A DNA stretch of 64,000 nucleotides. Source: an uncultured Rickettsiales bacterium. Its GTDB lineage: Bacteria > Pseudomonadota > Alphaproteobacteria > Rickettsiales > JABDBP01. Below, piece by piece: positions 1,595 to 60,858 of the stretch. The stretch's first letter is position 1. The number at the start of each line of letters is the position of its first letter. The DNA lies in the NCBI GenBank assembly GCA_964450945.1, contig CAYVHI010000001.1, forward strand, positions 93,316 to 157,315. Direction: 5' to 3'. Made by a program: the position numbers and the translations under genes. Under the pieces are notes generated by a model, which saw only the letters and a list, made by a program, of their open reading frames with translations, was not told where the DNA came from and searched no databases.

Positions 1595-2380
1595 ATGGGT
1601 CTATTCAGTAAAATAGGTAATATCCCTTATATAAAACCACTTGTTGTTCTGGCAGCTTCTTTTATTCAGGGTCATGCGGCGGAAAAAGATGAAGCTCCCA
1701 ACAAAGAACCTGAAAAACCTTCTTTGGTGAAAGTTCTTGATAATCTTGAGAACGAAGAAGCTGGTGAGGTAGAAAGATCAGATAATTCTGCCGCCGCCAG
1801 CGAGAAACCGGAATTCATTTATATAGGCTCATTAGAACAGATGTCTGTCATGGCCAAAACTTATATAGATAATGTTAATTATCCGGCGCCGAACATAAGT
1901 TCGGTTAGTCCTGAACTTAATGAAAAACTTAGTGCAGCGGTTGAAGCAACTAACCGGCAACTAGATCTTTTTATCAACGCGCTTGTTCGGGGCGCAGACA
2001 TAAAAATCTTGCGCGATCAGAAAAAATATCTTGATCAGAGAGTTGATAACGAGCGCGTTCTTACTGCGCATGCCATGCCGCTTATAAGCAAAGATCCATT
2101 AAAGAAAAAATTACTTGAAGAGGAAGATCAGTACTTGAATAGGATCGTTAAAGATTCAAATAATCTCATGCGCGAGCTCGAAAAAATTCATAAAACTGAT
2201 AAGCGCCCATTCTCAATAAATGAAAAACCTGAAGGTATCGCAAAAGGGCTTGCTAATGAAATGGCCGCTGCCGGAAAATCTGCCGGTGGGTTAAAATCTT
2301 CTGATACAAATGAAGTTACTGTTCCTGCTTCTATCACAGCGGCCATAAAGAAAGCTGTTGATAACACAAAACAGGTTTAG
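1595..2380 (+). CDS. hypothetical secreted/coiled-coil protein
   Basis: Track ORF 1550-2380. The ATG at 1595 gives MGLFSKIGNIPYIKPLVVLAASFIQGHAAE, which is signal-like. No family recognised. Confidence 0.5.
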   Translation: MGLFSKIGNIPYIKPLVVLAASFIQGHAAEKDEAPNKEPEKPSLVKVLDNLENEEAGEVERSDNSAAASEKPEFIYIGSLEQMSVMAKTYIDNVNYPAPNISSVSPELNEKLSAAVEATNRQLDLFINALVRGADIKILRDQKKYLDQRVDNERVLTAHAMPLISKDPLKKKLLEEEDQYLNRIVKDSNNLMRELEKIHKTDKRPFSINEKPEGIAKGLANEMAAAGKSAGGLKSSDTNEVTVPASITAAIKKAVDNTKQV

Positions 2381-2643
2381 TTATTTTTCTTGATTATCTC
2401 ATCAAGCAGGGTGCCGTTGGCTTTTTTCTCTTTAGCTGAAACTTTTGCCATTTTCCTGCCCTTGGAATCCCAACGGTAGGTCGTGACCACAACTTTTGTT
2501 CCGGTGGTTACGATATCACCATTTTCAAGCTGCAGCACATCAAACCCCTTTTTCAGGGCTTCAGTGATTATCTCGGAAGATTTCCTGAGATAATCGGGGT
2601 TAGACATTACATCATCACTATCTGCGCCTGTTTTTTTTGCCAT
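2377..2643 (-). CDS. hypothetical small protein
   Basis: Track ORF 2377-2658 has a GTG start. The ATG at 2643 has an AGGTGA SD about 11 nt upstream. No family recognised. Confidence 0.45.
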   Translation of the reverse strand: MAKKTGADSDDVMSNPDYLRKSSEIITEALKKGFDVLQLENGDIVTTGTKVVVTTYRWDSKGRKMAKVSAKEKKANGTLLDEIIKKNN

Positions 2644-2741
2644 TGTTGCTGATATCACCTACTGGTTAATTTTCTATTAATTATGAAACCAGTTATGGCA
2701 GTTAATGTCAATCAAACAATGGTTAACAAATTTCATGCAAA

Positions 2742-2776: not shown

Positions 2777-2792
2777 ATTGATCTTTTTTATT

Positions 2793-5138: not shown

Positions 5139-7688
5139 TTAAGCAGCGTCAGCTTTGGAAATTTCCGCTGAAACGGTAAAGGCGCCGTCTTCGCTTTTAA
5201 CTGATGGGATGTTATCTGGGCCTTTCTGCCAGTGTATTTTTAGAGAGCTGGTTACTCCGGCGATATCTTTTTCCATCTTTTTAACATCACCTGCTTCACC
5301 CTGAACATATAAATTGGTGATTGGTGTTTTGATGGAAACTTTTTGTTCTGCTTTAATTTTTCTCACCGCTTCTAAAATCGAAACTGCGGCAATACCGGTT
5401 TTTTCCGCCTGTTCGTTCACAGGATAGTTTGTGGCGATAGGCCAGTTGCCACGCTTATGAATGGAATTTTTGCTTTCAAAAATATGTGAATATAATTCTT
5501 CGGTGATGTGCGGCACAAACGGCGCAAATAATCTTAAAATCCCATCAAGACAATGATAGATTGTATGCGCGGCAGAAAGTTGGCCTTTAGGGTTTTCGCC
5601 TTTCTCGTCATAAGCGCGCACTTTCACCATCTCTAAATAATTATCGCAGAAATCTTTCCAGAAAAAATCTTCGGTTGCAACGCGCGCGTCACAATATTCA
5701 TATTCGCTAAAATCTTTGGTCGCCTTGGTGATTGTTTTTTGTAGCCTCGTTAAAATCCATAAATCGAGCGTTTCATTTATCACGCCGCTCTTCACATCTT
5801 CGGCCGCAGTTTTTTGATTTTTAACTTTATCTAAATGAATGGCGGCAAACTTGGAAGCATTCCAAAGTTTGTTCACCAGCTTCTTGCCGATCTTTAATAA
5901 ATCCTCAGAGAAAGCAGTATCAGCCCCAAGGCGTGAGGTGGATGCCCAGTAACGAACAGCATCAGTCCCCTTCTCTTCTATCAATGCAACTGGTGTCACC
6001 ACGTTGCCTTTTGATTTACTCATTTTTGTTTTATCAGCCGCCAGGCACCAGCCGGAAATCATCAAATTTTTCCACGGAATTGTTTTTTCATGCAGATATG
6101 CTTTCACGATTGTATAGAACGCCCATGTGCGGATTATTTCATGCGCCTGCGGCCGCAGGTCTGCCGGAAATAATTTTTCATGGCGCGCATTATCAATGCA
6201 GAAATCTTTATTTATACCTTTGCTGGATAATTGCGGTGACACGGACGAAGTCGCCCATGTATCCATCACGTCTTTATCTGGTTCCACTTCATCTTTTGTA
6301 TAACCTTTTGGCAAATCAACCAGTGGATTTATCGGTAGAGAATCTTTATCGGCAATTAAAATTTTTCCTTCTTCGCCTTTTCTTTTTGAATACCAGATTG
6401 GAAACGGAACACCAAAATAACGCTGCCTTGAAATACACCAATCCCAATTTAAACCATCAATCCATTGTTCTATGCGGATGCGCATGAAATCCGGGTTCCA
6501 GTTACATTCATTGGCTTTCTTTTTTAAATTTTCTTTTTTATCCAGAACTTTCACGAACCATTGGTGGGTCGGCAGAATTTCAAGCGGAGCACCACTTCTC
6601 TCCGCACATTTCACCGCGTGTTTTATTTTATCCTGCTTCACCAGAAGATTTTGTTTTTTTATTTCTTCTAGAATAATTTCGCGTGCACCCGGATTTTTAG
6701 GGTCAGAATTATTTACTTTTTTTCCTGCTAGAATTTCTTTTAGCGGAGAATCTTTTATTGCTTCACTTAATAATTCTGCATCAAGTTTTCCGTATTTATT
6801 TAGAATTATTTTTTCTTTCAATTTTTGTTTGCGCCACCAGTTGATATCCATTTCATCACCGAACGTACAGCACATAACCAGGCCGGTGCCTTTATCCATC
6901 TTCACTTCATCATCAGGAAGGATTGGAACTTTCACACCGAATAATGGAGTGATTGCGATTTTGCCTTTCAGTTTTTTGTTATAGCGTTCATCATCAGGGT
7001 GATAGAAAACTGCAACACACGCGGGGATTAATTCCGGCCTTGTTGTTCCAATTGTTATTTTTTCTTCGCTGCCATCAACGCCAAAATAAATATCATTCCA
7101 GAAGCTATCAATTTCCTTATCAACGATTTCAGCTTGTGCAATAGCTGTCTGGTCCACCGGGTCCCAAAGCATTGGCTGCAGCTGGCGGTAAACTTCCTGC
7201 TTCTTATACAAATCCAAAAAGCTCATCTGTGAGAGTTTGCGGCTTTCGGCGGAGATAGTTTGATATTCCTGATCCCAATCAACACTCAGTGCTGCGGATT
7301 TAAATAATTTGCGGAATTCATCCTCGGCATCCTTCACCACTTTCTCACATTCCTTGATGAACTCTTCACGTGTCATCTGTCCGGCTTTTTTGTTGATGGT
7401 TTTTTCCACAAGCCGTTCGGTCGGCAGGCCGTTATCATCAAAACCCATAGGGTAAAAAACGTTTTTGCCGATCATGCGCTGGAAGCGTGCCACGAAATCC
7501 GCCTGTGTATATGAAAATATATGCCCCATATGCAGCAAGCCGGAAACAGTCGGCGGTGGCGTATCAATCACATAATTATTTGCGCGTGGCTCGGCCGGGT
7601 CCCACGCATAGGTCTTCTGTTGCTGCCAGTGTTCCTGCCAGCGCTTTTCAGTTTCTTTATGATCGTATTGTTCGGGTAGTGGTTTCAT
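5139..7688 (-). CDS. valS: valine--tRNA ligase
   Basis: 849 aa from the ATG at 7688 (MKPLPEQYDHKETEKRWQEHW). Class Ia motifs are present: LHMGH, KMSKS, DWCISRQRYFGVPFPIW. The track ORF's 80 extra N-terminal codons overlap the DoxX gene and look non-coding. Confidence 0.92.
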   Translation of the reverse strand: MKPLPEQYDHKETEKRWQEHWQQQKTYAWDPAEPRANNYVIDTPPPTVSGLLHMGHIFSYTQADFVARFQRMIGKNVFYPMGFDDNGLPTERLVEKTINKKAGQMTREEFIKECEKVVKDAEDEFRKLFKSAALSVDWDQEYQTISAESRKLSQMSFLDLYKKQEVYRQLQPMLWDPVDQTAIAQAEIVDKEIDSFWNDIYFGVDGSEEKITIGTTRPELIPACVAVFYHPDDERYNKKLKGKIAITPLFGVKVPILPDDEVKMDKGTGLVMCCTFGDEMDINWWRKQKLKEKIILNKYGKLDAELLSEAIKDSPLKEILAGKKVNNSDPKNPGAREIILEEIKKQNLLVKQDKIKHAVKCAERSGAPLEILPTHQWFVKVLDKKENLKKKANECNWNPDFMRIRIEQWIDGLNWDWCISRQRYFGVPFPIWYSKRKGEEGKILIADKDSLPINPLVDLPKGYTKDEVEPDKDVMDTWATSSVSPQLSSKGINKDFCIDNARHEKLFPADLRPQAHEIIRTWAFYTIVKAYLHEKTIPWKNLMISGWCLAADKTKMSKSKGNVVTPVALIEEKGTDAVRYWASTSRLGADTAFSEDLLKIGKKLVNKLWNASKFAAIHLDKVKNQKTAAEDVKSGVINETLDLWILTRLQKTITKATKDFSEYEYCDARVATEDFFWKDFCDNYLEMVKVRAYDEKGENPKGQLSAAHTIYHCLDGILRLFAPFVPHITEELYSHIFESKNSIHKRGNWPIATNYPVNEQAEKTGIAAVSILEAVRKIKAEQKVSIKTPITNLYVQGEAGDVKKMEKDIAGVTSSLKIHWQKGPDNIPSVKSEDGAFTVSAEISKADAA

Positions 7689-7779
7689 TTTTATTCTCAA
7701 AGAGGCTAGTAAATTAGCCAATAAAAAACGCGGAGTCCAGTATTTTTCTTGGAACTCCGCGTTATTTGAGAATAGGGAT

Positions 7780-8409
7780 TTACTTCTTTTTCTTCTTTGC
7801 TTTAGATTTTTTCTTAGGTGAAGCTGCAGCAGGTGCTTCCATAGAGCAGCTCTGGTATTCCGTAACACTGCTTTCTTTTGATTCGGTTGAATCACAGCTA
7901 CCCATACTTGTGCTGCACATTCCGCCATCTTTCCTAAGCGGGCAGTATTTTTTCACCAGTATATGGTCGAGCGATATTTTGCCAGGACCATAGAGGAAAA
8001 TAGTACCAAGCAGGAATGCCCAGTAAACATGCTCATCAAAATGCAGGTAAGTAAATTCTATAACCGCAACCATGGCAAGCATGGCAAGTGCGCCAAGGCG
8101 AGTAAACAGGCCAAGCGTCAGAAGTATAGGGGTAGAAAGCTCAACAGCAGTGCCGAAGAATGCGGCCACTTCGGGCGACAGCACCGGAACTTTGTATTCT
8201 TCACGGAACAAGGCCACGGTTTTTTCCCAGTCATCAATTTTTGTAAGGCCGGATTTCCAGAAGATATCAGCTATCCACAGGCGCATGCCAAATACAAGCA
8301 GGCTCATCAGGCAGGTAGACCAGCATAAGAATTTTGCACAACAGCCTATAAGGCAATCGGTGATTTTACATTCACCTTTTTCTTTATTTGTTTCAGGGCA
8401 GCAGAACAT
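7780..8409 (-). CDS. DoxX-family membrane protein with Cys-rich termini and poly-Lys tail
   Basis: DoxX-like hydrophobic core (FGMRLWIADIFWKSGLTK...LGALAMLAMVAVIEF). It is the last gene of the DUF2282-DUF692-DUF2063 operon. Confidence 0.8.
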   Translation of the reverse strand: MFCCPETNKEKGECKITDCLIGCCAKFLCWSTCLMSLLVFGMRLWIADIFWKSGLTKIDDWEKTVALFREEYKVPVLSPEVAAFFGTAVELSTPILLTLGLFTRLGALAMLAMVAVIEFTYLHFDEHVYWAFLLGTIFLYGPGKISLDHILVKKYCPLRKDGGMCSTSMGSCDSTESKESSVTEYQSCSMEAPAAASPKKKSKAKKKKK

Positions 8410-8422
8410 TTAAATACCTCTC

Positions 8423-9175
8423 CTATTTAAAATCTGTAAACACACCACGAATGATATTGTTTTTTATAACTTCCTCAAGGTTAAAATTTTCCTCAGCCCC
8501 GATTGCTTCATTAAAAGCATCATAAAGAGTAGAGCCAGTATATAGTTTATCAAGAAACAGATACTGGGCTTTATCCAGTAGATAAATTTCTGGCTTCAGC
8601 CGGGGGCGGGTGAAAAGCACGAAATCGCCACGATTATCCAAACTTACTTCATCCCCTTTTCTTTCTATATTGTTATTCCATAGTTTAAAAACCGGGAATT
8701 TAGCAGCAAACAGCCTTACATGCGGCGCAAACTCAAATTTTAGATTCATCATGTCTTCAGGTTTTATGCCTGCAAGGGCGGCGCTGTTAAAAATTTTTCC
8801 CTGGGCAGCAAGGGAGCTTTCTTGATAGAGCTTTTCAAATATAGAAAGTTCAATAAGCTCTGGGTTCTTATCAAAAAATTCCAGTGTCTCAAGAAACTCA
8901 GGGAAATCATGCCCGTAATCATCAAGGTTGCCGGAGCGGGAAGGATTGTTCCTTATGTAATGAAATGCCAGGGAAGAAAATTTTTCTCCAAGAATATTGG
9001 CAAGCGCCGCATAAGTTATGGCAAGGGCATTCTTCTGAACCGAGAAAGTGTTGTTACGGTATACATCAATCAGCGCCCGTGGTGCAAAGCCGTTCTCAGC
9101 GATTTCTGTTATCAGCAGTTCATCTTTTTCTTCACGGACAGCGGTGATGAAATTTTTTTGCAGGTTAGAAAGCAT
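8423..9175 (-). CDS. bufC: DUF2063-family protein (bufferin BufC-like partner of the MNIO enzyme)
   Basis: Motifs IDVYRNN and PSRSGNLDDYGHDFPEFL are typical of DUF2063. The start overlaps the stop of the DUF692 gene by 11 nt. Confidence 0.75.
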   Translation of the reverse strand: MLSNLQKNFITAVREEKDELLITEIAENGFAPRALIDVYRNNTFSVQKNALAITYAALANILGEKFSSLAFHYIRNNPSRSGNLDDYGHDFPEFLETLEFFDKNPELIELSIFEKLYQESSLAAQGKIFNSAALAGIKPEDMMNLKFEFAPHVRLFAAKFPVFKLWNNNIERKGDEVSLDNRGDFVLFTRPRLKPEIYLLDKAQYLFLDKLYTGSTLYDAFNEAIGAEENFNLEEVIKNNIIRGVFTDFK

Positions 9176-10031
9176 TGGCCACCTTTTTTTGCTCGCCGTT
9201 TAAGATTTTATCAATAACTTGCTGGGCTTTTTGTGCTTCCTCAATCAACACGTTTAGTTCAGGCACATCGGTATCCCATTCGATGATGGTTGGAATGCGG
9301 CCGAATTTCTCTATTGCTTCACCGTAAAGTTTCCACACATCGGGAAAAACCCTTTTTCCGTGGTCATCAATCAGTAATTTCTTTCCTTCAATATCAACTT
9401 CGGCATAACCGGCAAGGTGGATTTCATGCACATATTTTGCTGAGATATTATCTATATAATAAGAAGCATCCAGGCCATGATTTTTTGCCGTCACATAAAT
9501 ATTATTCACATCAAGCAGGATGCCGCAGCCGGTACGTTGGGCAATTGCCTGTAAAAATTCTGGTTCCGGGATGGTAGAAGATTTGAACTGTATATACGCA
9601 GAAGGATTCTCAATCAGAATCTGCCGCCGCAGGAACATCTGTGCCATATCTATATTCCTGCAAATAACATCCAAAGATTCTTCTGTATATGGCATTGGCA
9701 ACAAATCATTCAAATGCACACCTCCCGCAGCCCCCCATGAAAGATGTTCCGAAACAAATGTTGGGTCAAATCTGTTTATGAATTCTTTTATATTGTTTAA
9801 ATGCTCTTTACTTAAAAGGTCAGCTGATCCTAATGAAAGTCCAACGCCATGCGCGCTAAGTGGATAATTCTTTCTGATTTCTTCAAGCCGTGCAGCAGCG
9901 ATGCCGCCTTTGGCAAAGAAATTCTCGGTATGGACTTCAAGCAGTGGTAATTTAGGTTTTAATTCCAGTATATCCTGAAAATGCCGGTGCCTTAGGCCTA
10001 TACCAACATCTGTGGTATCTTTATCTAGCAT
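9165..10031 (-). CDS. bufB: DUF692 / MNIO (multinuclear non-heme iron oxidative) enzyme, BufB-like
   Basis: Collinear DUF692 motifs: GIGLRHRH, EVHTENFF, HGVGLSLGS, VSEHLSW, LIENPSAY, GCGILLDVNNIYV, IHLAGY, IIEWDTD. The start is moved to Met-19 (10031) because the upstream codons lie in a 14-bp-stem hairpin. Confidence 0.88.
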   Translation of the reverse strand: MLDKDTTDVGIGLRHRHFQDILELKPKLPLLEVHTENFFAKGGIAAARLEEIRKNYPLSAHGVGLSLGSADLLSKEHLNNIKEFINRFDPTFVSEHLSWGAAGGVHLNDLLPMPYTEESLDVICRNIDMAQMFLRRQILIENPSAYIQFKSSTIPEPEFLQAIAQRTGCGILLDVNNIYVTAKNHGLDASYYIDNISAKYVHEIHLAGYAEVDIEGKKLLIDDHGKRVFPDVWKLYGEAIEKFGRIPTIIEWDTDVPELNVLIEEAQKAQQVIDKILNGEQKKVANAF

Positions 10032-10041
10032 ATTTAAAATA

Positions 10042-10079
10042 ATAAAGGCTTTCCCGTAAATATCAGGGAAAGCCTTTAT
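10042..10079 (-). promoter_or_regulatory. intercistronic stem-loop between precursor and MNIO gene
   Basis: Perfect 14-bp stem ATAAAGGCTTTCCC / GGGAAAGCCTTTAT with a 10-nt loop. On the - strand it is followed by ATTATTTTAAAT. Confidence 0.6.
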
Positions 10080-10110
10080 TTGCAATATAAAGTCTAATAC
10101 AAAAAGCTAA

Positions 10111-10380
10111 TTAGCCTTTCTTTTCTTCTTTATCAGCAACTACTTTACCACCCTCTTTTTCGCATTCTGCTTTAGTTTTATGAACCCATTCGTCAGCAAC
10201 ATTATCCGCCTTAGCTTGGCCAGCGCAAGAATGAGAAGAGGTGGCACAATCATTCTTTCCAGCAGCTACTTTACCTGTAGCGCATTTAACTTTTGCATCT
10301 TCAGCAACCGCACCTGTTGCAAGTGAAAGGCCTAGAGCCAGAACACTCGCAGCAGCGAGGAACTTTCCAGTATTTTTCAT
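10111..10380 (-). CDS. bufA: DUF2282-type secreted Cys-containing RiPP precursor (bufferin BufA-like)
   Basis: Sec signal peptide (LATGAVA/ED), then VKCATGKVAAGKNDCATSSHSCAGQAKADN...AECEKEGG. It has four Cys in the DUF2282 pattern and sits directly upstream of DUF692. Confidence 0.82.
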   Translation of the reverse strand: MKNTGKFLAAASVLALGLSLATGAVAEDAKVKCATGKVAAGKNDCATSSHSCAGQAKADNVADEWVHKTKAECEKEGGKVVADKEEKKG

Positions 10381-10527
10381 ATATACTCCAAAAAATGTTT
10401 AAAGAACTCTTCATGTTTGGGAAATCCATTCATGAATTAGACAATGCTTTAGCTAAAATTTTTATAATTGTCATCTGGTTTTATAGAGATTAATAGTTTA
10501 CTAAAACAGATGGTCTTTAAAAAAGAA

Positions 10528-10564
10528 ACAGGCCCTTTATGGGAACTATCCTCTAAGGGCCTGT
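10528..10564 (-). terminator. intrinsic terminator of 10587-10799
   Basis: ACAGGCCCTT ... AAGGGCCTGT stem. On the - strand it is followed by TTCTTTTTTAAAG. Confidence 0.6.
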
Positions 10565-10586: not shown

Positions 10587-10799
10587 CTATTCAGCTTTTT
10601 CTTTTGTTTCTTCAGCTTTCTTTTCGCCGTCTTCAGCTTTTTCAGCTTTCTTTTCGCCTTCTTTTGCTTCTTCAGCTTTCTTTTCACCGTCTTCAGCTTT
10701 TTCAGCTTTCTTTTCTGCTTTTTCTGCAGCTACAGCGAAAGATCCTGTTCCAAGAATAAGTGCAAGTGCGCTCATGATTGCAATAAGTTTAGTTTTCAT
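10587..10799 (-). CDS. small secreted Lys/Ala/Glu-repeat protein
   Basis: Signal peptide followed by repeats of AEKAEDGEKKAEE. The DNA shows a 30-bp period repeated about 4 times (10611-10730). Confidence 0.55.
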   Translation of the reverse strand: MKTKLIAIMSALALILGTGSFAVAAEKAEKKAEKAEDGEKKAEEAKEGEKKAEKAEDGEKKAEETKEKAE

Positions 10800-11221: not shown

Positions 11222-14200
11222 ATGGCAGAAGCAAAAAAATTAGAGATTGAGAGAAAGCCGAAGCACTATCCTGATGTGGATGGCAACCCTGATTTTGCGC
11301 GTTTGGAGGAAAAAATCCTCCAGTTCTGGCAAACCCACGGCACATTTGAAGAATCGGTAACAAAACGGGATAAATCGCCTGAATTCATTTTTTATGATGG
11401 CCCGCCATTTGCAAACGGCCTGCCGCATTATGGCCACCTGCTAACTGGTTATGTGAAAGATTTATTCGCCCGCTACCAGACAATGAAGGGCAAAAAGGTG
11501 GAGCGCCGGTTCGGGTGGGATTGCCACGGGCTTCCAGCAGAAATGGGCGTAGAAAAAGAAATCGGAATTGGCGGCAGGAAGGCAATTGAAGAATATGGCA
11601 TCGCAAAATTCAATGACCATTGCCGCACCTCGGTGATGAAATATACGAAAGAATGGGAATTTTATGTAAACCGCCAGGCGCGCTGGGTGGATTTCGAGAA
11701 TGATTATAAAACGATGGATTTATCTTACATGGAATCCGTCATGTGGGCATTCAAGCAGCTTCATGAAAAAGGCTATGTCTATGAAGATTTCCGCGTCATG
11801 CCTTATTCATGGGCGATGGAAACCCCAGTTTCCAACTTCGAAACCAAAATGGATAACGCCTACCGCGACCGCACAGATAAGGCTGTTTATGTTGCGTTTG
11901 AGTTGGATAAAATTCCCGAACAAGTATTGATAAATAAAGACCAAAAAATAGAAAAAGCCTTTCTTGTTGCGTGGACAACTACCCCCTGGACTTTACCCTC
12001 AAATTTAGCTCTTGGTGTAGCAAAGCCAGATTCGCATATAAAATATTCTGCTCATATTGTTGAAGGAAAATGTTTCATTTGCTCTGAAGAAAGTGGAAAA
12101 AAACTTTTCCCTAATCTTTATAAAGAAGAAAATTCGTATCTTAGAGACAATAGTATTAAAGTTTACAAAAATGTTATTGGTTCTACTAATTCATCAGGCT
12201 TTAGCTTGATAGATTCAACATACAAACCGCTGTTCCCATATTTCGAAAAATTAAAAGAGAAAGGTGCGTTTAAAATTTTAAGTGCGGATTTTATTGAGGA
12301 AGGCAGTGGCACCGGCGTGGTTCACCTGGCCCCTGGGTTTGGTGAGGATGACCAGCGCGTTTGTAAAGAAAATGGCATTGAACTCGTTTGCCCGGTGGAT
12401 GAAAAAGGCCGTTATACTTCGGAAATCTATGATCTTGATGATTTAAAACTACAAGGCCTTAATGTTGTGGCTGATAAAAATAAATCGCCTGATGAACCTT
12501 ATCGCCCAGAACAGCTTGAGAAATATGGTTTAGCAAATCTTCGTATTATTGATTGGCTAAAAAAACATGAAAAGCTTGCTGCTCCTCCTGAAGATATAAA
12601 ACACAGCTATCCGCATTGCTGGCGCACTGATACTCCGCTTATCTACCGCGCCGTTTCTTCGTGGTATGTTGAAGTCACGAAATTCAAAAACCGCATGGTG
12701 GAACTGAACCAGCAGAAAAACAGGATTCCAGAGCACGGGAAAGATGGCCGGTGTGGCAAAAGGCTGGAAGGCGCGCAAGATCGGAGCATTTCACACAACC
12801 GTTTCTGTCGCGCACCCATCCCCGTGTGGCGCAGTGATGACCCACAATACCATTGCGAAAAAGTTTTTGGATCACTACAAGAATTACAAAATTTCTTTAA
12901 CGTAACTCCGCAAGATTTACATCGCCCGAATATAGATAAACTGGTTGCTAAAAATCCTAATGATCCAACCGGAAAATCAATGCTCCGGCGCGTTACGGAT
13001 GTCCTTGACTGTTGGTTTGAATCTGGCTCCATGCCTTTTGCGCAGGTGCATTACCCGTTTGAAAACAAGGATTGGTTTGAGAATCATTTTCCGGCGGATT
13101 TCATCGTTGAATATGAAGCGCAAACGCGTGGCTGGTTTTATACGCTGATGGTGCTTGGTACTGCTCTCTTTGATAAGCCGCCATTTAAAAACGTTATCTG
13201 CCACGGCGTAGTGCTTGATGAAAACGGCGAAAAACTTTCCAAAAGCAAAGGCAACTATGTTGATCCGAAAGAGATCTTCAACCAATACGGCGCAGATAGT
13301 TTACGCTGGCTCATGCTTTCATCGCCAATCATGAACGGGCAGGAACTTTATATCGATAAGGATGGAAAATTCATCCGTGATGTTGTGCGCCTATATATAA
13401 AGCCGATTTGGAACGCTTATAACTTCTTCACGCTATATGCAAATGCTGATGGTATAAAGGCAGAGTTTGATACAAAATCAGAAAACCTGATGGATAAATA
13501 TATCATGGCGAAGCTCGCTGTCACCATAGATTCCATTGAGGCCGCGCTTGATGCCTTCGATACACCAAATGCCTACCGCGCCATTGAGCAGTTCTTTGAG
13601 GCACTGAACAACTGGTATATAAGGCGCAGCAAAAACCGTTTCTGGAAAGAAGAAAAAGATCAGGATAAGCAAACGGCATATAACACTTTATATACATGCC
13701 TGGTGTTGATGTGCCGTGCCGCTGCACCCCTTATTCCATTCATAACCGAAGAAATATTTAAGGGTTTAACCGGGCAAGAAAGTGTTCACTTGGCTGATTT
13801 TCCTGATACCTCGAGAATGGAGCGGAGTGACCAGATGGTGATTGTCATGGACCGTGTGCGTGATGTCTGCAACGCCGCGCTTGCCATCAGGAATGTCCAG
13901 AATATCCGCGTACGCCAGCCGCTCGCATCCATGAGCATTGTTGGCAATAACACAAAAGGGCTTATGCCGTTTGTTGAAATCATCAAGGAAGAAATCAACG
14001 TCAAGAAAGTTGAGTTTGAAGATGATGTAGCTGCTTATGCTGATTTTAAACTTCAAATAAATTTCCAGGTGCTTGGCAAGCGTTTGCCTGAAAAAATTAA
14101 GCAGATAATTCCTGCTTCAAAGAAGGGTGAGTGGAAAAAACTTGCTAATGGAAATATAGAAATCGTTGGTGAAGAATTGACCGAAGATGAATGTTTTATA

Positions 14201-14554
14201 CTTCTGGAACCAAAGGATAAAAAAGGTGCAGAGCCGCTTTCCACGCAGGATGCGCTGGTGGTTTTAGATTTAAATATAACTCCGGAACTTGAAAAAGAAG
14301 GCATAGCACGTGATATCGTGCGCATGATCCAGCAAGCGCGGAAAGATGCCAAATTGAATGTCTCCGACAAAATAAATTTATTCATTGAGGCTACAGGCGA
14401 TATAGGCGCAGCAGTTGATGAAAATCAAGATTATATAAAAGAGCAAACCCTTACTTCCTCACTCCGCATGGGCAATGCGGATAATTCTGATAAGAAATTT
14501 GAGAACGAACTCGACGGCAAAAAGATTGTTATCGGACTTAGCAAGGCATCATAA
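11222..14554 (+). CDS. ileS: isoleucine--tRNA ligase (type 2, eukaryote-like form)
   Basis: 1110 aa with HIGH (PHYGH) and KMSKS (KLSKSKGN) motifs. GWDCHGLPAE and TTTPWTLPSNLAL are typical of type 2 IleRS. Confidence 0.9.
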   Translation: MAEAKKLEIERKPKHYPDVDGNPDFARLEEKILQFWQTHGTFEESVTKRDKSPEFIFYDGPPFANGLPHYGHLLTGYVKDLFARYQTMKGKKVERRFGWDCHGLPAEMGVEKEIGIGGRKAIEEYGIAKFNDHCRTSVMKYTKEWEFYVNRQARWVDFENDYKTMDLSYMESVMWAFKQLHEKGYVYEDFRVMPYSWAMETPVSNFETKMDNAYRDRTDKAVYVAFELDKIPEQVLINKDQKIEKAFLVAWTTTPWTLPSNLALGVAKPDSHIKYSAHIVEGKCFICSEESGKKLFPNLYKEENSYLRDNSIKVYKNVIGSTNSSGFSLIDSTYKPLFPYFEKLKEKGAFKILSADFIEEGSGTGVVHLAPGFGEDDQRVCKENGIELVCPVDEKGRYTSEIYDLDDLKLQGLNVVADKNKSPDEPYRPEQLEKYGLANLRIIDWLKKHEKLAAPPEDIKHSYPHCWRTDTPLIYRAVSSWYVEVTKFKNRMVELNQQKNRIPEHGKDGRCGKRLEGAQDRSISHNRFCRAPIPVWRSDDPQYHCEKVFGSLQELQNFFNVTPQDLHRPNIDKLVAKNPNDPTGKSMLRRVTDVLDCWFESGSMPFAQVHYPFENKDWFENHFPADFIVEYEAQTRGWFYTLMVLGTALFDKPPFKNVICHGVVLDENGEKLSKSKGNYVDPKEIFNQYGADSLRWLMLSSPIMNGQELYIDKDGKFIRDVVRLYIKPIWNAYNFFTLYANADGIKAEFDTKSENLMDKYIMAKLAVTIDSIEAALDAFDTPNAYRAIEQFFEALNNWYIRRSKNRFWKEEKDQDKQTAYNTLYTCLVLMCRAAAPLIPFITEEIFKGLTGQESVHLADFPDTSRMERSDQMVIVMDRVRDVCNAALAIRNVQNIRVRQPLASMSIVGNNTKGLMPFVEIIKEEINVKKVEFEDDVAAYADFKLQINFQVLGKRLPEKIKQIIPASKKGEWKKLANGNIEIVGEELTEDECFILLEPKDKKGAEPLSTQDALVVLDLNITPELEKEGIARDIVRMIQQARKDAKLNVSDKINLFIEATGDIGAAVDENQDYIKEQTLTSSLRMGNADNSDKKFENELDGKKIVIGLSKAS

Positions 14555-16821: not shown

Positions 16822-17514
16822 ATGAGTTTTATTGATTTTTTAGGCATCGGTGCACAAAAAGCGGGAACCACCTGGCTTTATGAAAACCTCAAAGGCCACC
16901 CTGAAATATTCTTTCCTCCTGAAAAAGAAGTGCATTTCTGGGATATGTTCTATGAAAGAGGAGTTCCGTGGTACCAATCCCTCTTTGCCGGCAATATGGA
17001 TAAGGTTTGCGGCGAGATAACCCCGGCATATGCCATCCTGCCTTTGGAAAGGATAAAGGAAATAAAAGTCCTTAATTCAAGGCTTAAGATTATTTTTATC
17101 ATGCGTAACCCCATAGAAAGGGCGTGGTCGGCGGCACTGATGGAGCTCGAACGGGCAGGAATAAAATATGAAGAGGCTCCGGATGAATGGTTCATCAGGG
17201 AATTTACCTCCGAGGCATCTTTAAAACGCGGTGATTATGAAGCTTGCCTGAGAAACTGGCTAAAATATTTTCCGCGCAGGCAGATACTTTTGCTCAAATA
17301 TGAAGAAATAAAGACCAAACCTCTTGCTTTACTTAAAAAGGTTGCTGATCATCTTGGTGTTGATGAATCTTTCTTTGCCCGCTCTTCAAAAATAAATGAT
17401 GTTGTGTTTGCAGGAAAAAACTATCCCCTACGCCAAACTCTAAAACCCAAGCTTGAAGAATTATATAATAAAAAGATTGTTGATTTTGAGGGTTTCTTAA
17501 AAGAAATAGGGTGA
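16822..17514 (+). CDS. sulfotransferase-family protein
   Basis: N-terminal PAPS-binding-like motif GIGAQKAGTTWL, then IFIMRNPIERAWS, typical of sulfotransferase domains. Confidence 0.72.
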   Translation: MSFIDFLGIGAQKAGTTWLYENLKGHPEIFFPPEKEVHFWDMFYERGVPWYQSLFAGNMDKVCGEITPAYAILPLERIKEIKVLNSRLKIIFIMRNPIERAWSAALMELERAGIKYEEAPDEWFIREFTSEASLKRGDYEACLRNWLKYFPRRQILLLKYEEIKTKPLALLKKVADHLGVDESFFARSSKINDVVFAGKNYPLRQTLKPKLEELYNKKIVDFEGFLKEIG

Positions 17515-17798: not shown

Positions 17799-20180
17799 AT
17801 GGTAGATTATATTTTAACTAGTTCACAAACCATAACTGGCTTTAACGTCACTTCTGACGTTATTATTGTTCCATCTGCAGGCGGCAGCGCTAGCGTTGTT
17901 ACTGTAAGCGAAAATGCCGGCGGTACTACTTTTACACTTTCTAACGGTGTAGTAGTTACTGTTGCTGGTGTTACACGCGCTCAGCTTGCTGATACCAACC
18001 TTATCTTCTCAGACGGTTCTCGCGCACGTTTCGGCGATGCAACAACTGATAGCGCGCTTGATGGTATCGGTAACACCGTTGCAGGTACACTTCTTAACGA
18101 TCGTCAGTTTGGTCTTGGTGGGAATGATACTCTCTCTGCTTCAGCAGGTTCAGATTTCATAAACGGTAACCGTGGTAACGATATTTATACTGCTGCTGCT
18201 GATTCAGGCGCAGGTGATAGAATCCTCGGCGGTGCTGATAACGACACAATTGATGGCGCTCTGAACTCTGCATCACAACTTATTTACGGTGGCAATACAA
18301 ATCCTGATGCATTAGACGGCAACGATTCTCTCGTTGGCGGTGCTGGTGCTGACCAGATCTTCGGCGGTCTCGGTGATGATACGCTGGTTGACGGCGCAGG
18401 TGCAGATACGCTTGATGGCCAAGGCGGCAATGATAATATTGGTGCTGCAACAGCTCTTAACGCTGACGGCACAGGTGATGCAATCAACGGCGGCGCTGGT
18501 AATGATACAATTACCCTAGTTGCTGGCGGCGGCACAGAAACAGTTAACGGCGGTGCTGATAATGACAGCATCACCGGTAACAACGGCGCAAACCTTGTTC
18601 TCAACGGTAACGCTGGTAATGATACGATTACAGACGGTGCTGGTTCTCTTGCTACAGTTGGCGGCGGTGCCGGTAATGACAGCATCACTGCAAACGCTGA
18701 TGCTAACGGCGATCTGTTCAAAGGCGCTCTAGGCGATGATACACTTATCAGCGCTAACGCAGCTGGTACAGATACCTTCTTCGGTGGCGGAGGCAATGAT
18801 TCCTTCACAGCTACCACAGGTACTGCAACAACACTAACAATGTCTGGTGACGCTGGTAATGATACCATCACACTCGGCACAGGCGCTATCGGTACTGCAA
18901 ACTTCATCACTGGTGAAGGTACAGATTCTGTGAGCCTGTTCTTTGATGCTGCTGGTACAGACACTGTTAACGTTACAGACTTTACTGCTGGTACAGACCT
19001 CATGCTGATTAACGCTAACGTTAACGCTGCTGGCCTTGCTAACACAACCGGCAACTCTTCTACACTTACAATCAGAAACGCTGGTGACCGCGCAGTAGTC
19101 TCTACAAGCGGCGCTGGTACAATAAACGTACTGAACGGCGCTACATCATCATTAATCGCTTTCAACCTGGGTACAACCGGTGCTAGCGTTACTGGTGGCA
19201 CAGGTGCTGACCTCCTGATCTCTGATTCAGCTGGTGATACATTAACACTAGGTACCGGAAATGATTCGTTCATCGGCGGTGCTGGTAATGACCTTATCAT
19301 CCATGAATCCACAAGCACAGATTCAGGTAGTGCAGGTACTGGTACTGATACAATCAGCATAACAGGCACAACATCTGTAGCTAACTTCGGTGGCGCTATA
19401 ACTGGTGGTGAAGTTATCCTTCTCTCCGGTGCAGGCGGCAGGACCATAGATTTCTCTGGTTCTTACGCAGTCGGCGATATAGCTGCTTCAAGCACTGTTA
19501 CAATTGATGGCGCAGCTTCAACTGGCATCGTAACCATAACATCTACTGCTGATATCGGTACTAAAACTGATATCCGCGGTGGTTCAACTGGTGACAGCAT
19601 CGTTCTTACCAACACAACCACAGCTTCTACAATCAGTGGTAATGATGGTAACGATACACTCACTGGCGGTTCAGCTGCTGACGTACTGAACGGTGGCGCG
19701 AATGATGACCGTCTCTCTGGTGCGGCTGGTAATGATACATTAACCGGCGGTACAGGTATTGACAGCTTGAACGGTGGCGCAAACAACGACGTCTTCAGGT
19801 ATGCTACCGGTGATGCGGTTGCAGCTCCTGCTGTTGGCCAGATCGAAGTTGCTGCTGACTATACAGATGCAACTGACAAGATCATGTTCCAGGGCGTTAC
19901 ATCAAGCTGGACATTCGGCACAAACAACCTGACAACAGCTGACCCAACAATCGCTGCAGTTCTGGCTCTCAACTCAACAGCTAACTCTGTTCTTGCTGTG
20001 AACCTGAACAACGCATCTCAGACAGCTTTAACCGGTATCGGTGGCTTTGGTCTGAACGCTGCGAACGGCGATGACATCATCGTTATCAATGATGGCACCA
20101 ACAAGTTTGCCATATTTGTTGACGGTGCTGCTGCACTTACACTGACAACCTTTGCTGATATGTTCCAAGACTTTGCTTAA
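17799..20180 (+). CDS. RTX-type calcium-binding repeat protein (probable T1SS substrate)
   Basis: 793 aa with dozens of GGxGxDxUx nonapeptides (GGAGNDTI, GGLGDDTL, GGANDDRL). It is acidic and Cys-free, and the C-terminus is unstructured. Confidence 0.85.
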   Translation: MVDYILTSSQTITGFNVTSDVIIVPSAGGSASVVTVSENAGGTTFTLSNGVVVTVAGVTRAQLADTNLIFSDGSRARFGDATTDSALDGIGNTVAGTLLNDRQFGLGGNDTLSASAGSDFINGNRGNDIYTAAADSGAGDRILGGADNDTIDGALNSASQLIYGGNTNPDALDGNDSLVGGAGADQIFGGLGDDTLVDGAGADTLDGQGGNDNIGAATALNADGTGDAINGGAGNDTITLVAGGGTETVNGGADNDSITGNNGANLVLNGNAGNDTITDGAGSLATVGGGAGNDSITANADANGDLFKGALGDDTLISANAAGTDTFFGGGGNDSFTATTGTATTLTMSGDAGNDTITLGTGAIGTANFITGEGTDSVSLFFDAAGTDTVNVTDFTAGTDLMLINANVNAAGLANTTGNSSTLTIRNAGDRAVVSTSGAGTINVLNGATSSLIAFNLGTTGASVTGGTGADLLISDSAGDTLTLGTGNDSFIGGAGNDLIIHESTSTDSGSAGTGTDTISITGTTSVANFGGAITGGEVILLSGAGGRTIDFSGSYAVGDIAASSTVTIDGAASTGIVTITSTADIGTKTDIRGGSTGDSIVLTNTTTASTISGNDGNDTLTGGSAADVLNGGANDDRLSGAAGNDTLTGGTGIDSLNGGANNDVFRYATGDAVAAPAVGQIEVAADYTDATDKIMFQGVTSSWTFGTNNLTTADPTIAAVLALNSTANSVLAVNLNNASQTALTGIGGFGLNAANGDDIIVINDGTNKFAIFVDGAAALTLTTFADMFQDFA

Positions 20181-20305: not shown

Positions 20306-22072
20306 CTAAAACTCTTTCATCTTTTCCGCTTCTTCCAGTTTTGCAATGGTTGCTGGGGAAACAGTCTTTACCAGGCGCTGTGAAGGAAGAATAATGGTAA
20401 CTTTTGTGCCTACGCCCTCAATGCTTTCAAGTTTGAGCTTACCGCCATGCATCTCGGTAAACATCTTTGAAAGTGGCAGGCCAAGCCCTGTACCGCCCCT
20501 CTCCTTATCACCATGTTTCTCAATCTGCCCAAATACTGATAATGCTTTTGGAATATCATCCTCAGCAATACCAACACCTGTATCTGAGACAGTCATGATA
20601 AAATTTCTATTACTATCCAGAAGGCAGTTTATATGTATATTGCCGCCCCTTTCAGTGAATTTGATGGAATTGGAAAGCAGGTTTATAAGTACCTGCTTAA
20701 TTTTCCTCTCATCAGCGCGCAATTGCGGCATACCTTCCTGAACGGTGCTGTTGATCTTTATTCCTTCAGCTTTTGCCCTCTCATTGAACATGCGGATACT
20801 TTCGCTTACAACTTTGGCAACATCTATATTTGATTCCTTAAGTTCGACCTTTCCGGCCTCTCCTTTCGAGAATTCAAGTATATCGTTTATCAGTTCCAGC
20901 AGGTGCTTACCGCACATATGCACATCGGTAATGCGCTCTTTCTGCTTAGCGTTTAGGGTACCGAAATAACCGGCACTCATCATTTCCGAAAATCCTATTA
21001 TGGCATTAAGCGGAGTTCTTAGCTCATGGCTCATATTGGCAAGGAATTCGCTTTTCGCCTGGCTTGCCATGATGGCTGTACGCTCGGAGCGCTGCACCAC
21101 CCCCATCTGCCTTGCCATTACCAGCACGAAATAGGAAATAACACTGGTAAACAGGATAAGTATCACTAGGTATATAACATCGTTTATCCTGTCAAATTTC
21201 CACGCCTTAAAAATATCATCACCGCAAGTTTTTACTGCTATCAGTATTTTAAGGTTAGGTATAGTTTTTAAGGTATAAAGGGCGTAAGGGCCTTTATCAT
21301 CCTTTTCCTTGGTAAACATCCTCGTTTCATGGAGTTTGTTGATATCGGCGGTATCAAGGATCTTCCTGAAATACTCCTTCTGCGGGGTATCAAACTGGTT
21401 TATCAGCTCCTGTATTTCATCATTCCCGCTATAGAGGATAGCCATCTTGCTTTTCTTGTCTTTTTCTACAGAATTGAAGAATCCTGTCAGGTATTTATTG
21501 TCAACAAGGGCCACCATGATGCCACCAAAACTGCCGTTGATGTTGTCAATCCTGCGGCTCATCAGCACCAGGCCACGTTCTGATATCCATTTATCCTTTG
21601 ATACATCAAAAAACATATCTACATCCTTTGAATCCTTAAGGATGTAGAATAATTTCTTATCTTCCAGCGTTTCTTTGCCCTCCAGCCAGGTTTCATAACC
21701 CCTTTTACGGTAAATAGTCTTTATGGTTCCGTGCTCATCTGTCATCAACATACCGGAGATCTGGGGGGTTTCATCCACCCACACCATAAAATTATTTAGT
21801 ATGTCATCATTAAGTTTGTTGCCGAACAGCTGGTTGAAATATTGTCTCTCTACCGCCCTTTTCAGCACCATGTCCACCGCAAGATAGGTCAACTCCACAT
21901 GGTCAGAGAATATCCTGGAAAGGCGCTCGGCATTTACTCTTCCATCAGCCACAGCCTTTTCGCGTCCGGTTATGCCCCTGTAGACAAGCAGAACTGAATT
22001 AAGCACGATAAGCACACAGCTGATTATTATAATCAGCTTTGCAACCTGTTGTTTTGTTTCTGCCTTCGTCAC
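20306..22072 (-). CDS. sensor histidine kinase with periplasmic sensor domain
   Basis: Two TM segments flank a ~270-aa extracytoplasmic domain. HisKA box FLANMSHELRTPLNAI and the HATPase G-boxes (GGTGLGLPLSK) are present. No adjacent response regulator. Confidence 0.85.
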   Translation of the reverse strand: MTKAETKQQVAKLIIIISCVLIVLNSVLLVYRGITGREKAVADGRVNAERLSRIFSDHVELTYLAVDMVLKRAVERQYFNQLFGNKLNDDILNNFMVWVDETPQISGMLMTDEHGTIKTIYRKRGYETWLEGKETLEDKKLFYILKDSKDVDMFFDVSKDKWISERGLVLMSRRIDNINGSFGGIMVALVDNKYLTGFFNSVEKDKKSKMAILYSGNDEIQELINQFDTPQKEYFRKILDTADINKLHETRMFTKEKDDKGPYALYTLKTIPNLKILIAVKTCGDDIFKAWKFDRINDVIYLVILILFTSVISYFVLVMARQMGVVQRSERTAIMASQAKSEFLANMSHELRTPLNAIIGFSEMMSAGYFGTLNAKQKERITDVHMCGKHLLELINDILEFSKGEAGKVELKESNIDVAKVVSESIRMFNERAKAEGIKINSTVQEGMPQLRADERKIKQVLINLLSNSIKFTERGGNIHINCLLDSNRNFIMTVSDTGVGIAEDDIPKALSVFGQIEKHGDKERGGTGLGLPLSKMFTEMHGGKLKLESIEGVGTKVTIILPSQRLVKTVSPATIAKLEEAEKMKEF

Positions 22073-58634: not shown

Positions 58635-59455
58635 TCCCTTTCTTCCTTTTTCCTGCGCTGCTGATGAAGCTGGATGATGTTGGCGGCAACCTCCTCAACC
58701 GATTTTCTTGTTACATCTATAACCGGCCATCGCTGCTTGGAAAATAGTTTCTTCGCTTCTACCAGCTCTTCTTTTATCGAATCCATATCAACATAGCTGG
58801 TATCCCTATCTTCTTTCATTGAAAGAAGGCGGCTCTTCCTTATTTCAATAAGCCGTTCTGGCGCGATAACAAGTCCGACAATTAATGGCTTAGTTAGCGA
58901 AAAAAGTGTTTCTGGCAGAGCGACGCCTTTTACCATCGGAACGTTTGCCGCCTTATAGCCGCGGTGGGAAAGATACATGCTGGTTGGAGATTTTGAGGTA
59001 CGGGAAACGCCAACCAGGATTATATCCGCCTCTTCCAAATCCCAGGTTGCCTGGCCATCATCATGCGAGATGGAAAAGTTAATCGCCTCAACGCGCGAGA
59101 AGTATTCTTCATCCAATTCATACTGGCTGCCGGCACGCATTTTTATACCCATACCGAGCAGCGATGACATCTCACTTATAACGCGATTAAGTGGAGCTAC
59201 ATATGGAACATTTATTTTCTTACAGCCTTCAGCAAGATAATCCTGCAACAGCGGGTCTATAATGGTATACATAACTATCCCCGGGTTCTCCTTTATCTCT
59301 TCAAGAACCTTGTCTATCTGCCCTTTTGTACGGGTTAGAGACCATATATTCTCTTCTGCATCTATCCCCTCAAAAAGCGACATCACGGCACGGGCTATAC
59401 TACTTACCGTTTCCCCGGTTGAATCAGATATAAGATGCAGATTTATTTTTTTCAT
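58631..59455 (-). CDS. pyruvate,phosphate dikinase regulatory protein-like kinase/pyrophosphorylase (DUF299)
   Basis: LISDSTGET N-terminus and GVSRTSKSPTSMYL P-loop. Confidence 0.85.
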   Translation of the reverse strand: MKKINLHLISDSTGETVSSIARAVMSLFEGIDAEENIWSLTRTKGQIDKVLEEIKENPGIVMYTIIDPLLQDYLAEGCKKINVPYVAPLNRVISEMSSLLGMGIKMRAGSQYELDEEYFSRVEAINFSISHDDGQATWDLEEADIILVGVSRTSKSPTSMYLSHRGYKAANVPMVKGVALPETLFSLTKPLIVGLVIAPERLIEIRKSRLLSMKEDRDTSYVDMDSIKEELVEAKKLFSKQRWPVIDVTRKSVEEVAANIIQLHQQRRKKEERE

Positions 59456-59820
59456 ACATGATTTATAGGGAATTCTTGTGGATAAGTGAATAGGTTTTCC
59501 ACAGCCGGATATTTATCCCCGACAACTAAAAAATTAAAAGCCCAGTTATAGACATGTTGATATATTTTTTTACTACATGTTAAATAGGTTGATACTTTCA
59601 TGAACATAAATCTATCAACATTAACAACATTATAATTTTTTTATTAAAAACTAGTATATTAGAAATTTACATATATAAGTTATCAACATATTTATATTAA
59701 GATAAAAACTCATTAAAAAATTTTTAATATTGTTAATTTAATGTGGATATTATTTAATCCACACAAAAAATATTACCTACTAACTACTAAAACTCTTTTT
59801 AAATTTAAAATATATATTAA
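59456..59820. other. probable chromosomal replication origin (oriC)
   Basis: A 365-bp, ~80% AT spacer next to hemE, the classic alphaproteobacterial origin position. It holds one perfect DnaA box (TGTGGATAA, 59477-59485) and four one-mismatch boxes (59495-59503, 59680-59688, 59742-59750, 59755-59763), plus one TTAA-N7-TTAA motif (59713-59727). Confidence 0.75.
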
Positions 59821-60858
59821 GTGATAAAGCCTTTCTTAAAAACCCTATCTGGAGAAAAAACAGAAAAACCTCCTGTCTGGATAATGAGACAGGCAGGAAG
59901 ATATTTGCCTGAATATAATGAAACTAGAAAAAAAGCAGGTGGATTTTTAAATCTTTGCTATACACCGGAACTTGCAGCAGAAGTAACACTACAACCAATA
60001 AGAAGATTTGGTATGGATGCGGCAATAATTTTTTCAGACATACTAGTGATACCTCATGCGCTTGGAATAAATGTTGAATACCACGAAGGAAAAGGACCAT
60101 TACTTACAACCACAAGAAATTTATCTGAAATAAATAAACTAAACACAAAAAATATTTCTGAAAAATTATCTCCGGTCGGTGAAGCTATAAAAATAGTTGC
60201 TAGGGAACTGCCAAAACAAACAGCGCTGATAGGATTTGCCGGAGCCCCATGGACTGTTGCTACATACATGATCGAAGGCGGATCATCTAAGAATTTTGAA
60301 GAGGCAAAAAAACTTGCTTACACAGAACCAAAAACATTTAAGAGGATGCTTGGAATTATTATTGATGCAACTTCAGAATATCTTTCCATGCAGATAAATT
60401 CTGGTGCGGAAGTAATACAGATTTTTGATTCATGGGCGGGAGTCCTGACGGAAGATGAATTTAAAAAATGGGTTATAAAACCAACATCAGAGATTGTTAA
60501 AACAATAAAAGAAAAACACCCGCAGGTAAAAATAATAGGGTTCCCGAAAGGAGCAGGATTATTATATAAACAATATATAAAAAACACGAGGATAGATGCG
60601 GTGGGCATGGATATTAACCTGCCACTGAAATGGGCAAAACAGAACTTACAGAAAAAAATTCCTGTGCAAGGAAATCTTGACCCGGTATTGCTTGCGTCTG
60701 ACAAAGAGGCAGCCTGCCGCCAGGCAGAAAGAATAATAAATAATTTTTCTGGTGGGCCACACATCTTTAATTTGGGTCACGGCATATTACCGCACACGCC
60801 TGTAGATAACGTGAAGGCTTTAATTGATACGGTAAGAAAATTTAACGCACGCGCCTAG
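59821..60858 (+). CDS. hemE: uroporphyrinogen decarboxylase
   Basis: GTG start, with PVWIMRQAGRYLPEY and a full-length HemE-like sequence. Confidence 0.92.
   Translation: MIKPFLKTLSGEKTEKPPVWIMRQAGRYLPEYNETRKKAGGFLNLCYTPELAAEVTLQPIRRFGMDAAIIFSDILVIPHALGINVEYHEGKGPLLTTTRNLSEINKLNTKNISEKLSPVGEAIKIVARELPKQTALIGFAGAPWTVATYMIEGGSSKNFEEAKKLAYTEPKTFKRMLGIIIDATSEYLSMQINSGAEVIQIFDSWAGVLTEDEFKKWVIKPTSEIVKTIKEKHPQVKIIGFPKGAGLLYKQYIKNTRIDAVGMDINLPLKWAKQNLQKKIPVQGNLDPVLLASDKEAACRQAERIINNFSGGPHIFNLGHGILPHTPVDNVKALIDTVRKFNARA

Follow-up and report, generated by a model that had tools for sequence, protein, structure and literature searches.

Loci that combine an MNIO enzyme with a DUF2063 protein number more than 24,000, are found in about half of the Pseudomonadota reference genomes, and are depleted in Rickettsiales (PMC13097082). 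Thousands of Buf1-type bufferin clusters have been reported with exactly the four-gene core bufA, bufB, bufC and bufD (PMC12452194), and the gold-induced 'gig' operons known from Cupriavidus metallidurans, Legionella and Bordetella correspond to buf1 operons (PMC11626156). Bufferins are small exported peptides in which cysteines are turned by enzymes into rings that bind copper. Here, a four-gene locus at positions 7780-10380 of a 64,000-nucleotide (nt) stretch of contig CAYVHI010000001.1 (GenBank assembly GCA_964450945.1), referred to as the window, was analysed. It is very probably a Buf1-type bufferin (captophorin) biosynthetic operon, bufABCD.

A preliminary description of this DNA presented the locus as a notable find. 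However, the class was described in 2024-2026, is curated and extremely common, and the Pfam and NCBIfam models would name the locus automatically. Its value lies in its lineage, its conserved genomic position and its Cys-rich BufD protein.

Gene content and class assignment

The four open reading frames (ORFs) of the operon are all on the minus strand, where the preliminary description had located them, and are tightly packed as it held, the start of bufC overlapping the stop of bufB by 11 nt and 13 nt separating bufC from bufD. GGAG-type Shine-Dalgarno sites precede bufA (7 nt upstream), bufC and bufD. The assignments to DUF2282, DUF692, DUF2063 and DoxX made in that description were confirmed by profile hidden Markov model searches, in which all four proteins scored above the curated Pfam cut-offs and far beyond chance. 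The older names 'DNA-binding protein' and 'membrane protein' for DUF2063 and DUF2282 were rejected. The bufferin four-gene architecture proposed for the locus is borne out by the A-B-C-D order, which is that of the published core cluster (PMC11626156, PMC12452194); when 80 related loci (numbered with the prefix L) were compared for gene order, A-B-C(-D) was found in most of them. The same 3.7 kb, 100% identical, is present in five independent public read-set assemblies, and the locus, including its odd features, is therefore taken to be reliable sequence and not an assembly artefact.

BufA gave a score of 43.0 bits (cut-off 22.4) with the Pfam family DUF2282/BufA1 (PF10048) over residues 31-77, and is labelled PF10048:BufA1 in the precomputed annotation. 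It reads MKNTGKFLAAASVLALGLSLATGAVA up to the predicted cleavage site and EDAKVKC...GKNDC...HSC...AEC... after it. The VKC, GKNDC, HSC and AEC contexts noted previously for the 89-residue precursor are all present in the translation, with Cys at residues 33, 45, 52 and 73. In a full-length alignment of 73 sequences these four Cys are in register with those of the 72 homologues; three of the Cys columns are conserved at at least 80%, and the fourth was displayed for all rows. The core pattern KC..G..KAGxNDC....HSCAGQ...D....W......CEK.GG is kept across the homologues, Trp65 included. The N-terminus of BufA has K2 and K6, a 15-residue hydrophobic stretch (FLAAASVLALGLSLA) and no lipobox, and it aligns with the signal peptides of the homologues. 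These features point to a Sec-type signal peptide of 26 residues, in agreement with the export proposed earlier, and the cut is predicted after AVA26 (before ED). A search of 1.84 billion cluster representatives returned 451 relatives at E<=1e-3, and the best non-self matches are 39-57% identical; judged by its sequence, BufA is a distinct member of a large family.

Among the NCBIfam bufferin-precursor models, the sole match of BufA is to BufA2, which belongs to the other subfamily (NF050166), and BufC and BufD match HvfC and HvfX weakly. These matches would favour a different subclass of MNIO-modified RiPP (a peptide made by the ribosome and modified after translation), namely Buf2 with a 6- or 12-Cys precursor, the oxazolin/fontiphorin (Hvf) type with EGKCG repeats, or a methanobactin-like system. 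However, all of the scores are under the respective cut-offs: 37.1 bits against 60 for BufA2, 21.7 against 142 for HvfC, 51.9 against 80 for HvfX, 232 against 360 for HvfB, and 59.8 against 325 for MbnB (TIGR04159). Furthermore, the precursor is free of EGKCG repeats and has four Cys instead of six, passes the DUF2282 cut-off and aligns with Buf1-type precursors. The Buf2, Hvf and methanobactin-type identities were rejected because of the sub-cut-off scores and the four-Cys, repeat-free precursor, and a subclass other than Buf1 is effectively refuted.

BufB scored 337.6 bits with Pfam MbnB_TglH_ChrH, formerly DUF692 (cut-off 25), and 366.4 with the NCBIfam equivalog NF050167 (MNIO_BufB, 'MNIO family bufferin maturase'), thus passing its cut-off of 310; it is under the NCBIfam cut-offs of HvfB, ApyH, MbnB and ChrH. 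As expected for the MNIO enzyme with family motifs that had been recognised at this position, it retains H61, H96, E141, D174, N177, H205, D222, H224, E251 and D253 (numbering of the 288-residue form), each of which is at least 99% conserved among 81 sequences. The set without N177 is taken as the intact metal site, by correspondence with the iron ligands in the solved structures of MbnB. Among solved structures, the DUF692 protein 3BWW is matched by BufB at E = 3e-47; the matches to TglH (E = 3e-9) and MbnB are weaker. It is 50-57% identical to many homologues, and its best relative among 185,579 species representatives (one genome per species) is 57% identical.

BufC scored 60.2 bits with Pfam DUF2063 (cut-off 27.2) over residues 5-95; the newer Pfam label of the family in the precomputed annotation is HvfC_N. 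A word-indexed search of 5.8 billion proteins gave two relatives at E <= 1e-8, which are 33% and 32% identical. An AlphaFold2 model, built from a shallow three-sequence alignment, has a mean predicted local distance difference test (pLDDT) score of 61.5, with values of 85-94 in the C-terminal half, where beta-strands are followed by three helices. In Foldseek the model matched best two chains from the TglHI holoenzyme, 8hi7_A and 8hci_A, both of them TglI, which is the partner of the MNIO enzyme TglH (E = 1.5e-4, probability 1.0, TM about 0.5). RiPP recognition element (RRE) proteins, which bind leader peptides, were matched more weakly; they include 6jx3_B and 5v1u_A, and the proteins concerned are lasso B1, TbiB1, SuiB and McbB. 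With moderate confidence, BufC is thus modelled as an N-terminal DUF2063 domain followed by a C-terminal RRE-like domain. The match to the TglI/RRE fold agrees with earlier accounts in which BufC combines DUF2063 and RRE-like domains (PMC11626156, PMC13097082).

Several points weigh against the assignment of the locus as a Buf1 operon. BufC is very divergent, with 20-34% identity to its counterparts in the related loci and the protein database and 30-34% to its best relatives; a comparison with the PDB, both as a single sequence and as a 31-sequence profile, gave no match, 3DEE included, and the N-terminal half of its model is of low confidence. The signal peptide of BufA was judged solely from sequence features and the alignment, and the single NCBIfam precursor match of BufA is the BufA2 model mentioned above. 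Searches for a promoter and for a metal-responsive regulator at the locus gave no candidate, and modification, copper binding and regulation are assigned by analogy.

The divergence of BufC, the lack of a regulator nearby and the reported depletion of MNIO-DUF2063 clusters in Rickettsiales (PMC13097082) would also be compatible with an operon remnant that is decaying or no longer functional, the genome being a reduced one. However, all four ORFs are intact and bufA, bufC and bufD have Shine-Dalgarno sites, the conserved catalytic residues are all kept in BufB, and the same site is retained in genomes whose flanking synthetases are 55-65% identical (see below). On the grounds of the intact ORFs, kept residues and retained site, a pseudogenised remnant was rejected, and this explanation is considered highly improbable.

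For a functional Buf1 operon, the following pathway can be proposed by analogy with Caulobacter vibrioides (PMC11626156, PMC12452194, PMC13097082). BufB and BufC, with iron and O2, would convert Cys45 and Cys52 of the precursor to 5-thiooxazoles in the cytoplasm. The peptide would be exported by Sec and cut by signal peptidase after Ala26, and Cys33 and Cys73 would form a disulfide in the periplasm. The resulting 63-residue product would bind one copper ion via the two S and two N atoms of the thiooxazoles and buffer excess periplasmic copper. BufD, being dispensable in Caulobacter, would probably have an accessory part. From the sequence of the window itself, the hairpin that follows bufA probably holds the precursor transcripts above those of the enzymes. 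The computed monoisotopic mass of the BufA core is 6544.15 Da unmodified; two thiooxazoles would lower it to 6536.09 Da, and the additional disulfide to 6534.07 Da.

Variation in the precursor region was observed in the related loci. L012 has two tandem bufA genes (5391-5657 and 5717-6001 of that locus). The bufA ORFs of L023 and L029 encode 7 and 10 Cys, respectively, as compared with the usual 4. In L023, a gene for a lipoprotein with CGK/CNK repeats, a candidate precursor of the Cys-Lys type, lies just upstream of bufA (~5480-5660).

Table 1. Positions of the bufABCD genes, the associated hairpins and other features of the window.
Feature	Position	Strand	Description
bufA	10111..10380	-	89 aa, bufferin-1 precursor; DUF2282/BufA1
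bufA, predicted signal peptide	10303..10380	-	residues 1-26, Sec-type
bufA, predicted core	10114..10302	-	63 aa
bufB	9165..10031	-	288 aa from ATG 10031; MNIO (DUF692) enzyme
bufB, mechanical ORF	9165..10085	-	306 aa from TTG 10085
bufC	8423..9175	-	250 aa; DUF2063 partner protein, PME1 type
bufD	7780..8409	-	209 aa; DoxX membrane protein
Stem-loop, 15 bp, then AUUAUUUUAAAU	10041..10080	-	between bufA stop and bufB ATG; minimum free energy -25.5 kcal/mol, z = -4.55, 0/200 shuffles
Terminator-like hairpin and U6 run	7715..7767	-	3' of bufD; minimum free energy -19.9 kcal/mol, z = -4.26, 0/200 shuffles fold as well
Terminator-like hairpin and U-run	10517..10564	-	3' of upstream 70-aa ORF; minimum free energy -26.5 kcal/mol, z = -4.40
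70-aa ORF	10587..10799	-	directly upstream of bufA
valS, mechanical ORF	5139..7928	-	929 aa
ileS	11222..14554	+
DUF2671 gene	2377..2658		57.5 bits
Sulfotransferase	16822..17514
RTX-repeat protein	17799..20180		793 aa
Histidine kinase	20306..22072		about 10 kb from the operon
Probable replication origin	59455..59821		intergenic, upstream of hemE
hemE	59821..60858

Transcript boundaries and the start of bufB

The operon is, judged by its sequence, one transcription unit bounded by hairpin/U-run elements. The hairpin with a U6 run downstream of bufD is intrinsic terminator-like and would mark the end of the operon. A second such element separates bufA from the 70-aa ORF upstream, and bufA should therefore have its own promoter in 10381-10516. 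No sigma-70 consensus was found upstream of bufA on the minus strand, and no motif common to the bufA upstream regions of the window and L001, L012, L023 and L029 was found.

The third hairpin lies between bufA and bufB. Of 60 related loci, 23 have a comparable stem-loop (z <= -2) located 3' of bufA; that of L001, the closest syntenic locus, has z = -5.5 and is accompanied by a U-run. From its position, this element is probably an attenuator or messenger RNA stabiliser that would set a high precursor-to-enzyme ratio, the usual RiPP device. No mention of such a hairpin was found in the parts of the bufferin literature that were consulted.

The hairpin also bears on the start of bufB, whose mechanical ORF begins at a TTG and has 306 residues. 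The TTG extension crosses the 15-bp hairpin, and the Pfam match of BufB begins at residue 27 of the extended ORF; hence the gene most likely starts at ATG 10031. The ATG was also picked by one gene caller as the bufB start in L084. The spacing between bufA and bufB is 79 nt with the ATG start and 25 nt with the TTG start.

The product of the 70-aa ORF has a signal peptide followed by no Cys, its Lys/Glu/Ala repeat (EKKAEKAEDG / EKKAEEAKEG) being Cys-free and specified by two copies of a 60-nt unit that share 96% identity. A Shine-Dalgarno site and a terminator of its own accompany the ORF, which belongs to no Pfam family and gave no phmmer match in L001 or L012. The ORF occupies the position where L023 has the Cys-Lys-repeat lipoprotein gene.

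The Cys-rich BufD protein

BufD scored 56.4 bits with Pfam DoxX (cut-off 23.6) over residues 40-120, and a homologue of bufD was found in 56 of the 80 related loci, mostly directly after bufC. It contains 12 Cys. Nine of them are within residues 1-33, ahead of any hydrophobic segment, in MFCCPETNKEKGECKITDCLIGCCAKFLCWSTC. The remaining three are in a tail of 53-54 residues that follows the DoxX core and terminates in KKKSKAKKKKK. The BufD homologues in the related loci typically end no more than about 13 residues past the core, with 0-1 Cys in that part.

A set of the 120 closest homologues, query included, was drawn from the 5.8-billion-protein collection. The non-self members are 114-175 aa long, and none covers more than 75% of the query. 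Four of the 120 have at least four N-terminal Cys and two have a tail of at least 30 aa, the query being counted in both cases. Partial Cys-rich counterparts are encoded at L001:7555-8046, L023:7637-8221 and L029:7606-8070, and the poly-Lys end is shared with L023; a minority of other BufD proteins have short CC or CxxC motifs at their termini. Sequence comparison thus indicates that the BufD features are in part common to L001, L023 and L029, which form a small uncultured alphaproteobacterial clade. The five public assemblies, being 100% identical, showed no polymorphism that would inform on selection in the BufD tail.

With membrane helices even in number, the positive-inside rule predicts that the two ends of BufD face the cytoplasm. 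It is conceivable, if speculative and rather doubtful, that the Cys-rich termini form a metal- or redox-active module at the cytoplasmic face of the membrane. In Caulobacter, bufD is dispensable for modification and for copper protection (PMC11626156), and a possible involvement of DoxX in copper binding has been mentioned (PMC13097082). If such a module exists, the lineage with Cys-rich BufD would provide a first handle on the role of DoxX in bufferin operons, and the variant could be used to probe that role.

Genomic position, regulation and relation to known systems

The buf operon lies between ileS and valS. The mechanical valS ORF shares 149 nt with the end of bufD. However, the real start of valS is ATG 7688, giving 849 aa as in public assemblies. 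This start is about 30 nt past the bufD terminator, and valS may therefore be expressed in part by read-through or from a bufD-internal promoter. The arrangement gpsA-ileS, divergent from bufABCD-valS-DUF2671-DnaJ, is common to the window, L001 and L012, the latter two being species-level relatives represented by metagenome-assembled genomes (MAGs) labelled Alphaproteobacteria. ValS is 60-65% and IleS 55-61% identical between the window and these loci. Since the position is kept in at least three genomes so divergent, the operon is old, vertically inherited and long retained. Its GC content of 0.42 is the same as that of the flanks.

The host had been described as AT-rich and Rickettsiales-like. 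The former is overstated, as the GC content ranges over 37-50% in the window, with an average of about 43%. The latter is plausible from the DUF2671 gene, a family which points to Rickettsiales-like bacteria, and from the relatives of MnmG, but it is not established: no MnmG relative exceeds 72% identity, and the named ones among the nearest come from MAGs that bear the label Alphaproteobacteria bacterium or Rickettsiales bacterium. Other MAGs labelled Rickettsiales, e.g. L029, also have a buf operon. If the host is near Rickettsiales, the locus is a mild exception to the reported depletion; in the genome table of PMC12452194, the first rows for this order show counts of zero. The locus can be viewed as a Buf1 operon kept by vertical descent in an uncultured, deeply placed lineage of alphaproteobacteria close to Rickettsiales-labelled MAGs, and such retention fits the idea that bufferins help bacteria to endure copper in phagosomes or hosts.

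In the Pfam scans, covering 30 otherwise unidentified ORFs of the window, no sigma/anti-sigma pair (SigF/NrsF), MerR-type sensor or copper-resistance/export gene was found; the remaining ORFs read as housekeeping, and the precomputed Pfam annotation covers the genes within about 10 kb. Two sub-threshold matches were recorded, of HemJ to CopD and of a glyoxalase protein to FUR, and the sole regulator seen is the histidine kinase. The absence of extracytoplasmic function sigma/anti-sigma and metal-sensor genes, which the preliminary description had emphasised, is thus correct as an observation, but it is normal: Buf1 clusters have such sigma/anti-sigma genes in only some cases (PMC12452194). Being frequent and not defining, SigF/NrsF does not weigh against Buf1 membership by being missing here. 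The locus is a minimal cluster without a local regulator, and in view of the lack of a local pair, buf expression may be constitutive or controlled from elsewhere.

The same observation raises the question of whether the machinery has another role, in which the product would handle another metal or oxidative stress, or supply copper to cuproenzymes, and would be made constitutively in a stable, possibly host-associated niche. Such a role would accord with the failure to find a copper-responsive regulator or copper-export gene in the 64 kb, and with the fixed site of the operon among housekeeping genes near a probable replication origin; roles with other metals, e.g. in MerC fusions, have been raised by the authors of PMC11626156 and PMC12452194. 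However, copper is bound by all characterised members (Buf1, Buf2, oxazolin, fontiphorin, gonophorin), whose clusters respond to metal or oxidative stress by induction (PMC11626156, PMC13097082), and regulators need not adjoin their target genes. Another role is therefore regarded as unlikely, and a copper-buffering Buf1 operon is preferred.

The origin mentioned is located about 50 kb from the operon. The intergenic segment contains five DnaA-box-like sites at 59477-59763, including the only perfect TTATCCACA of the window, has low GC, coincides with the minimum of cumulative GC skew, and lies in a hemE / maf-aroE-coaE-dnaQ neighbourhood of alphaproteobacterial type; judged from these features, chromosome replication probably starts here. 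Further genes of the window are metE, several for heme synthesis, and those of a porin and the RTX protein; together with the average GC content, they leave the description of the host as AT-rich and Rickettsiales-like only partly justified. Many ORFs without a Pfam family, several of them with signal peptides, are located at 1550-4974, 15607-20180, 25172-25879, 30309-31136, 39821-40531, 50184-51339, 54340-56475, 60842-61441 and 63274-63900. These ORFs, with the RTX-repeat protein, the sulfotransferase and the DUF2671 gene, suggest a host-associated lifestyle.

Among the known systems, methanobactin MbnBC shares with the window the MNIO fold, the metal-site residues and the conversion of Cys to a copper-binding heterocycle. 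It differs in that MbnC is not a DUF2063 protein and that the product is an oxazolone/thioamide secreted for copper acquisition. The TglHI pair of 3-thiaglutamate biosynthesis (PDB 8HI7, 8HCI) is related through both proteins, as the BufC model superposes on the full length of TglI and BufB matches TglH. However, TglHI catalyses excision of the Cys beta-carbon in another substrate, involves no Sec export and has about 13% sequence identity.

The captophorins fontiphorin, oxazolin/Hvf, gonophorin and bulbicupramide (PMC13097082) have the same combination of an MNIO enzyme, a DUF2063/RRE partner and a Cys-containing precursor with a signal peptide, and a copper-binding 5-thiooxazole product would be expected in the window as well. 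Their precursors have EGKCG or other Lys-Cys / Cys-Lys repeats, whereas that of the window is of the DUF2282 type.

The operon also resembles buf1ABCD of Caulobacter vibrioides (CCNA_03363-03366; PMC11626156), which consists of the same four families in the same order and whose precursor likewise has four Cys and a signal peptide for Sec. The DUF2063 partner with an RRE-like domain and the DoxX protein are further common traits, and BufB of the window passes the BufB equivalog cut-off. In contrast to the Caulobacter cluster, the operon of the window has no adjacent SigF/NrsF genes, is wedged between ileS and valS, and belongs to an uncultured alphaproteobacterial host. Its BufC is about 30% identical to relatives, and its BufD carries Cys-rich extensions and a poly-Lys tail.

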